Source: a virus | Taxonomy: Duplodnaviria; Caudoviricetes | Strand: one strand, 5' to 3' | IMG/VR virus record: IMGVR_UViG_3300014508_000004 | Location: 1-36,897 of that record | Length of the DNA: 36,897 bases | In this document: positions 4,152-36,897 of the stretch, one piece after another | How positions within the stretch are numbered: position 1 is the stretch's first letter | Layout: every line of letters starts with the position of its first letter | Program-made: the position numbers and the translations under genes | The notes under the pieces: model-generated | Databases searched by the model: none | What the model saw: the letters and a program-made list of their open reading frames with translations, nothing else | Told to the model about the DNA's origin: nothing

Positions 4152-4228
4152 AGTTATTCAATATTTGCTAATTATAGTTTAGCTAACTGCGGATTTGTTA
4201 CGATGATCCGAATTAAATCGGCAGTGTT

Positions 4229-4397
4229 AATCTGTATTGTTGAATTAACCTGTAACTGGAACCACCCAATAAGCACCTACGAGGTCAGCGCTCCGATACT
4301 ATATTAACGAGCTTTTAACTCTGGCTTAATAATTCTCGTTTATTACATCTAAAAGGTAATCACTCCGATTAGATTGGTTAACTCAACAATACAGACT
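4229..4397 (-). ncRNA. Candidate structured RNA domain 2
   Basis: ~22-bp closing stem (4229-4250/4376-4397) whose deviations are G-U pairs on the minus strand; encloses three hairpins. Confidence 0.55.
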
Positions 4398-4493
4398 AGA
4401 GGATGCTTTGAAAGGGGTTGCGCGTGGTTGTCAGATTCACATTTAACAGCTACTAGATTAGCTGACCAGTAATTATTGTTACTCTTTACGCAC

Positions 4494-5578: not shown

Positions 5579-5691
5579 AATATAAACCTTATCGCTTGTG
5601 GGTAGTAAGTTGTTATCACGGCCAATGATATAGCCGTAATTGTTAGATAAATATGCAACCTTGTTATAAGACGATCAATAGACTTAGACAT
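5575..5691 (-). CDS. Small membrane peptide (38 aa)
   Basis: Not in the track. MSKSIDRLITRLHIYLTITAISLAVITTYYPQAIRFIL; ATGA overlap with next gene. Confidence 0.4.
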   Translation of the reverse strand: MSKSIDRLITRLHIYLTITAISLAVITTYYPQAIRFIL

Positions 5692-9323: not shown

Positions 9324-9522
9324 CTTTACTCTCCGCTCGTTAAATTATTCCACGCTCAATATCTATCTTTTCAAAGTCAGCTTTAGTAACTCCAAACCCC
9401 TTGTAATAAAATATAACTGAGTTCTGTGGAAATTTACCGGATAAAGCATCATAGGCGTTATATCTTAGGTAAGATTTATAATGTGACATTATTCATTCCC
9501 CTGTTTTGTTTGGTGTGGTTAG

Positions 9523-10166: not shown

Positions 10167-10820
10167 ATGAGTACAGGCTGGGTAAAACTACACCGCCAAC
10201 TTTTAGATTGGGAATGGTATAACGATGTAAACACTACCAGAGTATTTTTACATTTGTTATTAGTTGCCAACCATAAAGACAATAACTGGCGAGGAATTGA
10301 AATAAAAAGAGGTCAGCGATTAACTTCTATATCATCACTTGCAAGCGAGACTCACCTCTCAATAAAAAATATTCGTACTTCAATAAAGCGCTTAAAATCG
10401 ACAAACGAAGTGGCAAGCTATAGTACAGCGCAACACACTGTTTTTACTATGGTTAACTATGATTTGTACCAAGATGAGGCAAGCGAAGTGGCAAGCAAAG
10501 GGCAAACAAAGGGCAAACAAAGGGCAACTAACAATAATGTTAAGAATGACAACAATGAAAATAAAGAGATCTTGTCATTAGTAAATGACGTGTTCGCTCA
10601 TTGGTGGAATTTATATCCATCATCAAGAAGAAAAAATAAAGGTGGTTGTTTAACTAAGTTCAAAGCAAAGTGTAAAGGACTAACTGAAGATCAGATAATT
10701 GAGCTCGTTGATAAAATGTCAGCAGATGTTGCCAAGCGAGTAAAAGAAATTGACGACATAAAGTATTTACCGACAACTGAGCCCTATATAAATCAAGAAA
10801 GATGGATGGATGAAGAATGA
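10167..10820 (+). CDS. Phage replication initiator protein
   Basis: GWVKLHRQLLDWEWY N-terminus, winged HTH-like segment, internal iterons, directly upstream of DnaB. Confidence 0.8.
   Translation: MSTGWVKLHRQLLDWEWYNDVNTTRVFLHLLLVANHKDNNWRGIEIKRGQRLTSISSLASETHLSIKNIRTSIKRLKSTNEVASYSTAQHTVFTMVNYDLYQDEASEVASKGQTKGKQRATNNNVKNDNNENKEILSLVNDVFAHWWNLYPSSRRKNKGGCLTKFKAKCKGLTEDQIIELVDKMSADVAKRVKEIDDIKYLPTTEPYINQERWMDEE
10478..10565 (+). repeat. Iteron array / probable replication origin
   Basis: Five GGCAA(G/A)C-type units at 11-12 bp spacing (10478, 10490, 10501, 10512, 10523) followed by an A-rich tract. Confidence 0.7.
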
Positions 10821-12271: not shown

Positions 12272-12766
12272 ATGAATACAGAAAATAAAAGCTTTACACC
12301 AGTGAACATTAAAGATTTATGGCAAACACCTAAAGAGTTATTTAACACGATAGACAAAGAGTTTAATTTTGTTTGTGATGTTGCAGCTAGTTATAAAAAT
12401 ACATTTTGTAAGGCTTATCTTGATGAAGAACAAAACTCTTTATTGTGTAGTTGGGGATCCGTTAACTGGTGTAACCCTCCATATTCAAATATTACGCCTT
12501 GGGTTAATAAAACTATTGAGCAACATGAACTAGGCAAAACTATTGTGATGTTAGTTCCCGCTGATACATCAGTAAAGTGGTTTAAGCTTGCTTATGAGTC
12601 ATGTAATGAGGTTAGATTTATTAGTGGGCGTATATCGTTTATTAATGCCGACACTCAAAAGCCTGTTAACGGTAACAATAAAGGATCAGTACTTTTTATC
12701 TGGAGAGGTAACGCGCCAAAGAATAGCCATACGGTCACATTAATTGATCGTGATGATTTACTTTAA
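12272..12766 (+). CDS. Phage DNA N6-adenine methyltransferase (Dam family)
   Basis: DLWQTP, DVAAS, WCNPPYS and GRISF motifs. Confidence 0.92.
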   Translation: MNTENKSFTPVNIKDLWQTPKELFNTIDKEFNFVCDVAASYKNTFCKAYLDEEQNSLLCSWGSVNWCNPPYSNITPWVNKTIEQHELGKTIVMLVPADTSVKWFKLAYESCNEVRFISGRISFINADTQKPVNGNNKGSVLFIWRGNAPKNSHTVTLIDRDDLL

Positions 12767-12787
12767 ACACAACCAATAGGAATGATA

Positions 12788-12809
12788 AGCGCTAGAATTA
12801 ACTAGCGCT
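12788..12809. terminator. Hairpin between convergent genes
   Basis: AGCGCTAG-aattaa-CTAGCGCT; weak T-tails. Confidence 0.5.
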
Positions 12810-12816
12810 GAGCAGG

Positions 12817-13188
12817 TTAAAACATACCGTTGTCACGAGCCTTTCCGCCACCAAATAACCAAGTAGCAGCAAACCATGAGCGAGAGCGGAACCATCTGCC
12901 CTCGCTTTTTAATATATCGCTTAATATTTTAGATGCTTGCCAGTTAGTACAGGGAGTTCCATCGCTAAAGCACCCGTCACGGCAAGCGACATCATGAAAC
13001 AACCATCCGAAGCTGTCTATATCCATTGCACCAGAAGCACCGTCATAAGGCTTATCAGAGGCTTTAATCTTTAAGTGTTTTTGATGTCGCTTGCTAAAGT
13101 AATCCTTATCTCTCATTACTTGATAGCCTAAAACAACACCAGCCCCGCTTTTGATTGGCTCAATGTAATCGTAAATACTTTCTCGCAT
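12817..13188 (-). CDS. DUF1353-like protein
   Basis: YDGASG...WLFHDVAC...WLFGG pattern. Confidence 0.65.
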   Translation of the reverse strand: MRESIYDYIEPIKSGAGVVLGYQVMRDKDYFSKRHQKHLKIKASDKPYDGASGAMDIDSFGWLFHDVACRDGCFSDGTPCTNWQASKILSDILKSEGRWFRSRSWFAATWLFGGGKARDNGMF

Positions 13189-13229
13189 TTTGTTAACTCC
13201 AAAGCGGTAAGTTTAACATAAATAAAAAC

Positions 13230-13257
13230 TTGACGTATAACTATGGATAAACTATGG
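13230..13257 (+). promoter_or_regulatory. Promoter overlapped by a tandem 10-bp direct repeat (putative operator)
   Basis: TTGACG at 13230-13235; ATAACTATGG x2 at 13237-13256. Confidence 0.5.
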
Positions 13258-13289
13258 TTAGCATATTGATTAGCAAGCAAGGGTTTTAA

Positions 13290-13424
13290 ATGATTAAGAA
13301 AGAGTGCAGATTTCAGAAAGAGTTAAATAAAGCGATTCAAGAGTTCGCAGATTTATTTTGCGAAGGTAATTTCAATCTAGCTGTTCGTCAATTGTGTAAA
13401 AAGGGATTAGACAATGACAAGTAA
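13290..13424 (+). CDS. Small putative ribbon-helix-helix regulator (44 aa)
   Basis: Not in the track. MIKKECRFQKELNKAIQEFADLFCEGNFNLAVRQLCKKGLDNDK; AAGGG RBS. Confidence 0.5.
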   Translation: MIKKECRFQKELNKAIQEFADLFCEGNFNLAVRQLCKKGLDNDK

Positions 13425-13531
13425 GGAGGTAAACCCTAAACTTTAGAATAACGAACATAACTAAATAAAATAGAGATAGTTAACGGTGTTTGTCTCTATT
13501 TAATCAAAATTAAACTTTAACGGAATTTATT

Positions 13532-14353
13532 ATGAAAAATGTAGTCAGCTTTAGCGGAGGAAGAACTAGCGCAAAATTAACATTGTTAGCTATTGAAAAG
13601 TTTGGCGTAGAAAATACGGTTGTCATATATATGGACACAGGCGCAGAGCATCCGAAAACTTACGAGTTTATTAAAAGCCTCGTTGAGGTGTTTGGCGTTA
13701 ACTTGGTTTGTTTGCGCGGTGACTTTAGTAAGCCACTAGGTAAGGGTGTCGGGTATAGTGTTGTTGATTTGTCGGATTGTAAATTTGATTTAAAGCCTTT
13801 TTCTGAAATGATGGGTAAATATGGGGTTCCTTATATTGGCGGCATGTTTTGCACTGACAGAATGAAGTTGAAGCCATTTCAAAAGTACTGTAAAGACCAT
13901 GTAGGTAAGGATATTACAACTTGGCTTGGTATTAGAGTTGACGAGCCTAGGCGATTAACAGAGAAGAAAGGAATTAAGTATTTAGCTGAGATTTGCGAGG
14001 ATGAAAAACAAGATATTATTTCTTGGTGGTCTGAACAAGTATTTGATTTGAGCATTCCTGAATGGCTTGGTAATTGTGTTTTTTGCCCTAAAAAGTCAAA
14101 TTTAAAATTAGCAGCAGCCCAGCGCGATGAACCTGAGCTATATGAAGAATGGTTAAGTATGCTTTATTCTGATTCGGTTCGTATTGATGATAACACAGGG
14201 CATCACTCTAAAATGTATCGTGGTGAGCAGTCATTAGAAAGCTTAATAGCTACATTTGACGGCTCAACTGGTGAAGAAATAAAGGCACGTATTCGAGGTG
14301 GCAAGATGGTTGACACTAATTCTTGTTCTGAATCGTGCGAAGTATTTAATTGA
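13532..14353 (+). CDS. PAPS reductase-like adenine nucleotide alpha-hydrolase
   Basis: PP-loop SFSGGRTS, DTGAEHPKTY, GIRVDE, GNCVFC and C-terminal CSESCE. Confidence 0.85.
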   Translation: MKNVVSFSGGRTSAKLTLLAIEKFGVENTVVIYMDTGAEHPKTYEFIKSLVEVFGVNLVCLRGDFSKPLGKGVGYSVVDLSDCKFDLKPFSEMMGKYGVPYIGGMFCTDRMKLKPFQKYCKDHVGKDITTWLGIRVDEPRRLTEKKGIKYLAEICEDEKQDIISWWSEQVFDLSIPEWLGNCVFCPKKSNLKLAAAQRDEPELYEEWLSMLYSDSVRIDDNTGHHSKMYRGEQSLESLIATFDGSTGEEIKARIRGGKMVDTNSCSESCEVFN

Positions 14354-14377
14354 TTACACAAAAGTAGGATTTGAACT

Positions 14378-14821: not shown

Positions 14822-15025
14822 ATGCTATTTAAAGCTAGAGACGATGGATTAATAGAGTGTAATGACTGGTGCGATCTGGAAGATGATGAAACCTGCATAG
14901 GGTTGATAATTAAATCACCAGAGGATGGCTACTACAGATTAAAAGTGACAGCAAGTAAGCCTTTATCATGCAGACATTTAAAACTAACAGCGCAAAAAGT
15001 TAGCGAAATGAACAAGGCAATATAA
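14822..15025 (+). CDS. Hypothetical protein
   Basis: 67 aa; stop codon lies inside the attC-like core site. Confidence 0.55.
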   Translation: MLFKARDDGLIECNDWCDLEDDETCIGLIIKSPEDGYYRLKVTASKPLSCRHLKLTAQKVSEMNKAI

Positions 15026-15084
15026 CCGATTAATTATGCGGAAAATACGCAGTATTTTTCCGAACATGAATTAGGTTGTTATAC
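15020..15084 (-). mobile_element. Integron attC-like recombination site (65 bp)
   Basis: Minus strand: GTATAAC-aacct-AATTCATG ... central hairpin ... CATAATT-aatcg-GTTATAT, with the extra C in the L'' box. Confidence 0.72.
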
Positions 15085-15108
15085 AGATTAACGAAGAGGC
15101 AATAAATT

Positions 15109-15276
15109 ATGAAACTAAACAAACAGATGTTATTAAGCGCAACAATGGTAGCGCTAAATTGCAGTATGACGAGCGCAATACCAGCTACTAGCGGCATGTA
15201 TGATATGCGCCCCAAGAACCACTTTAGAGGCGGCAGTAAAGGCAAGGGCGGAAAAATAAAGTACCCAAGGCGTTAA
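15109..15276 (+). CDS. Cassette-borne 55-aa basic peptide
   Basis: Not in the track. GAAGAGG RBS; MKLNKQMLLSATMVALNCSMTSAIPATSGMYDMRPKNHFRGGSKGKGGKIKYPRR. Confidence 0.6.
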   Translation: MKLNKQMLLSATMVALNCSMTSAIPATSGMYDMRPKNHFRGGSKGKGGKIKYPRR

Positions 15277-15279
15277 TCT

Positions 15280-15404
15280 GTATAACACTAGCATTAAGCG
15301 GAAACGCACAAACACGGAACGGGTAGTAAGTTAAATCAATAACTTAACTTTTATTTATTCCGTATTAACGGTGGAAACACGGAAACCATTATAGGTGTTT
15401 CCGC
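15280..15404 (-). mobile_element. Degenerate long attC-like site (L'/R' half intact)
   Basis: Minus strand ends CTTAATG-ctagt-GTTATAC; nested stems GCGGAAACGC/GTGTTTCCGC, ACGGAA/TTCCGT, AAGTTAA/TTAACTT. Confidence 0.5.
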
Positions 15405-15561
15405 CTTTCACTCATCAACCAGAGGTAGTTATGCTAGAAGGTCAGATGTATTACTTAAAGCTATTTTATATACTTTGCGCTATTGCTGCTTGCATGATGC
15501 CAGCACAGATATATTTACTAAATCAATGAAGATAATAATACTAAATTTAAAAGGAAGATCT

Positions 15562-15936
15562 ATGAAGAAATTAATAATCCATTGTTCCGCGACTCCAAAC
15601 GGTCGCTATCATAATGCTGAAGATATTCACAGATGGCACTTAGAAAAAGGCTGGGATGGCATAGGTTATCATTGGGTGATAACAACTAAAGGAGAGCTTC
15701 AAGCTGGGCGTCCTGAATACTGGAAAGGCTCACACGCTAAAGGCCATAATAATGCTATTGGTGTTTGCATGATTGGGGCCGATGAGTTTAGCGATGAGCA
15801 ATGGGAGGTATTGACCAACTTGGTATTGAAGAAAAAGATCGAATATCCATTGCTTGAAGTTATTGGTCATAATGAAGTTTCAAATAAATTATGCCCTGGC
15901 TTTAATGTTCATTGGTGGTTAAATAAAATTAAATAG
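15562..15936 (+). CDS. N-acetylmuramoyl-L-alanine amidase endolysin (T7 lysozyme-like)
   Basis: IIHCSAT, GWDGIGYH, GSHAKGHN, GHNE and KLCPGF motifs; ATG at 15562 with AAGGA RBS. Confidence 0.93.
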   Translation: MKKLIIHCSATPNGRYHNAEDIHRWHLEKGWDGIGYHWVITTKGELQAGRPEYWKGSHAKGHNNAIGVCMIGADEFSDEQWEVLTNLVLKKKIEYPLLEVIGHNEVSNKLCPGFNVHWWLNKIK

Positions 15937-15953
15937 GTAACTGGTGAAATACA

Positions 15954-16610
15954 ATGTTAGATAAGACAATAGAATACCAAACAAGAAGCTTCGGAAAGTT
16001 AAGGGTTGTAAATATAATTAACTATAGAAAAGTTGAAGTTGAATTCGTTGATACTGGATATAGAGTAACAACAAAAACACAAAGTATATTAGCAGGAAGC
16101 GTAAAGGACAAGTTAAAGCCAACATCTTTTGGTGTTGGTTTTATTGGTGATGGCCCGTATAAGTCAAGGTCAGGAAAAGGATTTAGTAAGCAGTATCAAT
16201 CATGGCAAAGCATGCTTCACAGGTGTTACTGTCCAATATATCAAAAAAGAGCGCCAACGTACAAAGGGTGCTCTGTTGATAAGGGGTGGCATGACTTTCA
16301 GAGTTTTGCTAAGTGGTTTGATGAAAACCACATTAAAGGATATCAATTAGACAAAGACATAAAAATAAAAGGGAATAAAATTTATTCGCCAAAAACATGC
16401 TGCTTTGTTTCCCCGCAAAAGAACACAGAGGCATCTTGCGCCAAGACGTACAGGCTAACAAACCCAAAAGGAGTTATTGTTGATATATTTAATATGCGAA
16501 AGTTTTGTGAAAAAGAAGGCTTAACCAGAGTAAGCTTGATGAGAGTTTATAACGGGAAAAAACTAGAATACAAGGGCTGGATGGCTGCTCCAGATTGTAC
16601 GGTTAAGTAA
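15954..16610 (+). CDS. HNH-like homing endonuclease
   Basis: WQSMLHRCY, WHDFQSFAKW and LDKDI...YSPKTCCFV motifs. Confidence 0.8.
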   Translation: MLDKTIEYQTRSFGKLRVVNIINYRKVEVEFVDTGYRVTTKTQSILAGSVKDKLKPTSFGVGFIGDGPYKSRSGKGFSKQYQSWQSMLHRCYCPIYQKRAPTYKGCSVDKGWHDFQSFAKWFDENHIKGYQLDKDIKIKGNKIYSPKTCCFVSPQKNTEASCAKTYRLTNPKGVIVDIFNMRKFCEKEGLTRVSLMRVYNGKKLEYKGWMAAPDCTVK

Positions 16611-36779: not shown

Positions 36780-36897
36780 TTAACTAGCTGTGAATAATGT
36801 TGCTTGAACATCGACTGTAAATGTTTCTGTATCAAGTAGTGTTACGGGTGAGCCTCTATCAAAGTAGCTTACTGTTAATCCACCTGCAGGAGTTGAA
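36780..36897 (-). CDS. 3' end of the join-spanning structural gene
   Basis: In-frame continuation of the ORF starting at 398; stop TAA at 36782-36780. Confidence 0.75.
   Translation of the reverse strand, partial: STPAGGLTVSYFDRGSPVTLLDTETFTVDVQATLFTAS
36800..36897. repeat. 98-bp terminal direct repeat, right copy
   Basis: Identical to 2-99. Confidence 0.95.

Follow-up and report, generated by a model that had tools for sequence, protein, structure and literature searches.

The window that we analysed, a stretch of 36,897 nucleotides comprising a 36.9-kb virus record, carries a compact locus upstream of an endolysin gene: a hairpin, a small gene enclosed by an inverted repeat, and a terminal element (Table 1). 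The record encodes terminase, capsid, DnaB, a replication initiator, exonuclease VIII, NinB, NinG, Dam and an amidase (domain scans of the window covered 29 ORFs for Pfam and 36 ORFs for PHROGs). Its two ends share a 98-nt identical overlap (2-99 / 36800-36897), and the record, which is classed as linear, is probably a closed circle. When the cassette region was compared by BLAST with annotated phages, the amidase gave the sole match, at 74-76% identity to amidases of Marinomonas and Thalassomonas phages, making it probable that the host is a marine gammaproteobacterium. The original prediction held that this phage has no integrase, and this was borne out: no tyrosine recombinase (PF00589) was found in the window or in 14 other virus records (0/15, of which 4 are at least 90% complete), so that the intI gene in cis that a complete integron would have was found in none of them. 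An Rfam search returned no match, while a promoter and terminator scan of 13-17 kb gave results at chance level.

Table 1. Features of the cassette locus and of the likely origin region (window coordinates).
Feature	Position	Strand	Description
Iteron-like repeats in replication initiator gene	10474..10528	+	Repeat search
67-aa ORF	14822..15025	+	R' box supplies its TAA stop codon
attC-type hairpin	15020..15084	+ (coding), the bottom strand	Folding, covariance model, box layout
Hairpin boxes	R' 15020-15026; L' about 15033-15038; L'' 15065-15072; R'' 15078-15084	+	
Classical cassette unit (hairpin core and downstream gene)	15026..15285	+	Lies between two AA/C points
Gene body within 17-bp inverted repeat	15077..15287 (arms 15077-15093, 15271-15287)	.	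Exchanged as a block
55-aa cargo gene	15109..15276	+	Hydrophobic N-half; basic Gly/Lys/Arg C-tail; no Pfam/PHROG family
Array-terminal half-site	15280..15430	+	R box, L-like box, two ACACGGAA at 15312 and 15377, TTCCG after each
IHF-type box	15334..15346	+	Exact match to the IHF consensus, WATCAANNNNTTR
Fixed right flank	15431..15936	+	32-aa membrane-like ORF 15431-15529; Amidase_2 endolysin 15562-15936

To the left of the hairpin, the 67-aa ORF has a terminus resembling a common cassette body, yet the upstream R'' is absent, and it is likely to be either a relic body or a fixed left flank; its region is swapped out up to 15023 in sibling contigs from two other runs (X2 and X3). The iteron-like repeats are likely to be the replication origin, lying left of the cassette locus, an assignment drawn from the lambda layout. 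Near the amidase there are also a Dam methylase, a PAPS-reductase-domain gene and an HNH endonuclease (12272-14353 and 15954-16610). A module, AAAGTAG, precedes three successive small ORFs at 14361, 14593 and 14809, twice in the form AAAGTAGGATTTGAAC; because sibling contigs break at 14360 and 14600, close to these modules, a second type of module border may be present.

The 55-aa ORF had been predicted to bear a ribosome-binding site, and we find both the ORF and AAGAGG at 15094. Since it has 10 homologues, we regard it on comparative grounds as a real, conserved gene. Profile searching gathered 16 representatives of the protein, some being repeat-rich chance matches; the ESM Atlas held nothing above 0.78, and a single-protein search of viral contigs gave no match. 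Three of the homologues (56-65%; L080, L082 and L083) are plain genes with neither hairpins nor repeats. The basic tail leads us to guess that the protein binds nucleic acid.

The hairpin and its cassette unit

The 65-nt hairpin and its boxes, which had been read from the sequence alone, were confirmed by sequence, box layout and DNA folding (z of -2.5 on the + strand and -2.9 on the - strand). Along the + strand the order is R', spacer, L', loop, L'', spacer, R''. An attC site has R'' and R' boxes with AAC/GTT, L boxes, and an imperfect hairpin of 57-141 nt, usually with spacers of five to six bases (PMC5027507), a description into which this structure fits at 65 nt. An attC's bottom strand is defined by bulges opposite AAC, of which the first is usually a G at position 16 and the last a T, 6 bp apart (PMC5027507). 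Here there are three bulges, all on the 3' arm of the + strand: G (15068), 3 bp, AA, 3 bp and T, the last being one of a run of Ts and its position therefore not fixed. Number, order and spacing thus agree with the two or three extra-helical bases of an attC, but the G lies at position 17, the 10th base from GTT, rather than at position 16, the 9th, a shift that the original prediction had not remarked. The 9th base carries the G in 20/21 bacterial sites; the phage hairpins keep this bulge in 28/40 cases and shift it to the 10th base in the other 12.

A covariance model built from 10 bacterial attC bottom strands left the window hairpin unscored, and produced 21 matches across 11 related phage loci, 20 of them on the coding strand. 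Iterating the model by training on 20 of its phage matches gave the window site 34.3 bits (E 7e-5), on the + strand only, with the next match at 16.4 bits. By folding and box layout, then, the hairpin is an attC-type site. Copies 97-98% identical to it occur in a related array (G005), and no copy of its subtype was found in the bacterial genomes searched. The runner-up is a weak, short, attC-like match at 5580-5618, between two leftward early genes. With the iterated model, the window has a single attC, below the two-site minimum for a CALIN (PMC9892861); its relatives, with two or more attC sites and no integrase found, count as CALINs.

The classical unit of hairpin core plus downstream gene has the extent originally proposed, which is supported by unit-end complementarity, by the iterated model and by sibling contigs. 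The perfect 17-bp inverted repeat noticed around the gene body is also present; the window contains one other perfect 17-bp pair (10613/11365), and therefore the repeat alone is weak evidence. Its 3' arm overlaps the last codon and the stop of the 55-aa gene, and in a homologous unit the arms remain paired, one base change being compensated and a one-base insertion having its partner.

Elsewhere in the window, within a 650-nt intergenic gap, we observed a 23-bp stem around 125 nt (4228-4250 / 4376-4398; RNA z -4.9). The stem and the cassette repeat have GTTAATCTGTAT in common (3 copies against 0.46 expected), and the stem is followed on the - strand by TAACACTGC, which resembles the end site; the related array G001 has an equivalent stem in other letters. 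It may be a stem of RNase III type, or else a second platform that is now dead.

Reversed polarity in related phage arrays

Ten further AT-rich arrays came from pattern and protein scans, giving 11 phage arrays with the window. Their sites were hand-picked, a generic hairpin scanner having proved too noisy. The pattern scans returned mostly chance matches (real loci 4/25, on 3 contigs, and 3/34); a further pattern scan gave at least one new end site. The counts exclude L089, whose sites are ambiguous, the high-GC family of L092 and L093, the final unit of G001, where R'' has decayed, and L133, an unpublished genome. The four variable R bases flanking a gene are complementary in 26/27 units and in 20/24 more (46/51 in total), the R bases across a hairpin in 2/26 and 2/23 (4/49 in total); shuffling for the first 27 units gave a mean of 5.1 and a maximum of 14 in 20,000 shuffles. 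Pairing of the unit ends continues past the R box (3.3 on average, 1.0 after shuffling), with compensatory changes, and the identity of hairpins before GTT averages only 3.4 nt. Unrelated genes have the first 25-58 nt of their units in common. Because of these common starts, the compensatory changes at unit ends and the plain homologues of the cargo gene, we think it likely that the cassettes derive from ordinary phage genes.

Cross-gene complementarity is symmetric and was hence left out of the assignment of polarity. On the coding strand, 40/49 phage hairpins have their extra base in the 3' arm (5' arm 6, tie 3), and 46/51 units have their longest ORF on the bottom strand; a control of 21 sites beside bacterial IntI (29 loci scanned) gave antisense in 12, sense in 2, both in 4 and none in 3. 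Since bulges and ORFs share a strand so regularly in the phages and the bacterial control is mostly antisense, we judge the reversed polarity of the phage cassette genes to be real. The prediction of a gene antisense to classical cassette polarity is likewise supported in the window, with the extra bases on the coding strand and the iterated model scoring the + strand only; where a gene cassette has its gene pointing towards its own attC, this one does not. In literature outside the subscription journals, we found no report of reversed phage cassettes.

Some arrays show further peculiarities. ORFs begin within long hairpin loops and read across the 3' arm in G001 (L065, 17843-17976) and G003 (L067, 2466-2577), and in G007 (L275, about 9480-9500) three bases separate R' and R'', the hairpin core being cleanly lost. 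The high-GC viral contigs L092 and L093 carry long arrays in an identical reversed layout.

The end site and exchange among sibling phages

The original prediction saw a second, long and partly decayed attC-like hairpin at 15280-15404. This did not hold: the region folds into separate small stems, lacks an R''/L'' arm and is matched by neither covariance model. Comparison across arrays indicates that 15280-15430 is a conserved half-site at the array end, not a decayed attC. It closes all 11 arrays with an invariant TAACACT (in 9/10 relatives, ACT was not part of the search pattern that first found the array), and its TTGTTA partner is missing in 10/11 copies, the G001 copy that has one being unscored by the covariance model. 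The IHF consensus is matched exactly, at the same place and with its middle four bases varying, in 5/11 copies, and a sixth copy departs from it at one base; chance would supply four matches per genome. A consensus RNA structure of the end site has a weak covariation term (+0.23).

The first element of an array, behind a fixed gene, is a complete hairpin, and the last is the half-site (G003 and G005 have the same upstream letters and different hairpins), which fits what insertion at AA/C leaves. The location of the end site in the array matches that of attI, with the partner arm absent, and a comparison of two sibling contigs (X2 record 5 and X3 record 14) is compatible with insertion there; the end site is likely to be a docking, attI-like site. 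We found no homology between it and bacterial attI: its core pattern had 2 matches in 401 Enterobacterales genomes, neither beside intI, and both are attributed to chance.

Assembled contigs from three other runs of one study (X2, X3 and X12) show how the units differ among siblings; a further run, X1, may be where the window comes from and does not count as independent. In X3 record 13 the hairpin and end site of the window flank a different 210-nt body, while in X3 record 14 the window body is unchanged, with another hairpin upstream and a hairpin directly after 15286 (AAC). In X2 record 5 the window body stands behind that same upstream hairpin and is followed by the end site, and further bodies terminate at 15281 in X2 and X12. 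A TARA contig contains the window body at 84% over its full length between unrelated hairpins (upstream 39%). The breaks fall inside 7-nt boxes. Among 18 pairs of near-identical hairpins the upstream R box is common to 1 and the downstream R box to 4 (background 0.13).

Cassette-precise differences among relatives, proposed originally as a check, are thus seen, with either gene or hairpin replaced at the R boxes. We read from these contigs that the cassette borders are precise and that both R boxes are used; because exchange takes place at the R'' box too, a hairpin is not bound to its gene. Across the 11 arrays and the sibling contigs we therefore have mobile units with complementary ends and precise borders, in which, unlike in a gene cassette, the gene does not keep its own attC core. 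New here are the exchange at both R boxes and the ordinary, non-cassette homologues of a cargo gene. We consider it very probable that this is the anatomy and exchange of a cassette, reversed and with a conserved end site. Bottom-strand recombination would explain AA/C, but cannot alone produce near-identical hairpins and bodies that change partners; swaps on the R'' side need either top-strand cleavage, which has been placed in R'' and is site-dependent (PMC5027507), or microhomology exchange by the phage. Top strands recombine about 1000-fold less (PMC5371416).

Comparison with known systems and candidate enzymes

CALINs in virulent phages have been published, and IntI1 was active on five of six sites (Qi et al. 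2023, PMC9892861). Of these phages, Pseudoalteromonas phage H101 is similar to ours in being marine and in carrying attC sites without an integrase upstream of endolysin, and its tested bottom strands are on the coding strand, as in the window; by this comparison the H101 sites are reversed too. In the accessible text of that paper neither a reversed polarity nor an end site nor exchange on two sides is commented on, and phage TJE1 in the same work differs in having classical polarity. With classical integrons (IntI, attI, attC; class 1 and sedentary chromosomal) the locus shares the R'-L'...L''-R'' hairpin with bulges opposite AAC, the AA/C crossover, complementary cassette ends and one non-folding site ending the array. 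It differs in lacking intI and Pc, in its genes facing the end site, in the G at position 17 rather than 16, and in hairpins that swap partners at R''. Secondary attG sites are similar as double-stranded GWT targets that take cassettes outside integrons (10.1101/2022.09.11.507474), but each is a one-off insertion point, whereas the phage end site is a conserved 150-nt element reused in 11 arrays.

Our preferred reading, to which we give a probability of roughly 0.6, is that the locus is a one-cassette remnant of a phage array whose units are exchanged at R boxes through an integron integrase that the host supplies in trans. Because the inferred origin lies left of the locus, lagging-strand synthesis at 15 kb would have the + strand as its template, a position that favours attC folding (PMC5371416), and this strand would fold when single-stranded. 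The fixed end site would serve as attI, perhaps with IHF bending it: the enzyme would cut at AA/C and add hairpin and gene units at this site. With polarity reversed, transcription of the phage early operon would cover genes that lack promoters, and the recombining strand would meanwhile remain exposed. A second route at R'', through either recombination of top strands or microhomology exchange driven by the phage, would swap hairpins between genes. The cassettes themselves would probably be made from ordinary phage genes. We favour the host integrase, with moderate confidence, because IntI1 recombines the reversed H101 sites and IntI scores above cut-off in 148/401 Gammaproteobacteria (a tally that includes four unpublished genomes). 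Against it we count the miss by the bacterial model, the shifted G, the R''-side swaps, and the failure to find a bacterial copy of the attC subtype or end site.

The same cassettes could instead be moved by a tyrosine recombinase of relaxed or Xer-like type, which the host or a helper phage would provide, cutting either strand and using the end site as a small attP with core, repeated arm sites and IHF box. Such an enzyme would account for exchange at both boxes, for the shifted-G subtype, for the ACACGGAA/TTCCG repeats surrounding an IHF box (exact in 5/11 end sites) and for an end site not found beside bacterial intI. We nonetheless think it unlikely, given that IntI-type hairpin geometry is kept, with the 9th-base bulge in 28/40, that IntI1 accepts the similar H101 sites (PMC9892861), and that none of the 15 virus records was found to encode one. 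Less probable still is that attC-derived hairpins now serve as RNA-processing or spacer stems, with genes swapped at short GTT/AAC identities by the phage's own exonuclease VIII and annealing functions. RNA processing would have no need of bulges specific to one strand, of R boxes complementary across genes or of an end site that does not vary, the breaks fall in 7-nt boxes, and 3.4 nt is a short average identity for the hairpins before GTT; these points stand against the facts that the phage encodes exonuclease VIII and NinB, that unit ends pair past the R box with compensatory changes, and that the long stem at 4228-4398 has 12 bases of the repeat and no hairpin.

It is very improbable that the 17-bp repeat bounds an invertible segment or miniature transposon, or that the gene has classical polarity with 15280-15434 as its attC, and we take these accounts to be largely refuted. 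The repeat is perfect with TGT...ACA ends, and the stop codon adjoins an RYYYAAC box, as the respective accounts would have it. However, no target duplication is present, none of four runs holds an inversion joint, and the repeat letters differ in the homologous unit; classical polarity is rejected on the strand of the bulges and on the lack of a partner arm for 15280-15434.

We also entertain, as a less likely proposal, that the phages make cassettes. Ordinary genes would gain complementary R-box ends and move independently of hairpins through a recombinase that cuts both strands, entering at an IHF-bent, phage-specific docking site. The question of how cassettes first arise is an old one, and if this proposal were true phages would be a birthplace of integron-type cassettes and offer a tractable system for cassette genesis.

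On the preferred reading, phages would use integron-type recombination, reversed to suit their own transcription, in varying accessory genes at the strain level. A locus such as this would escape detection tools that require two canonical attC sites. Here a single gene occurs in cassette form and also as an ordinary phage gene, and genes and hairpins swap partners.
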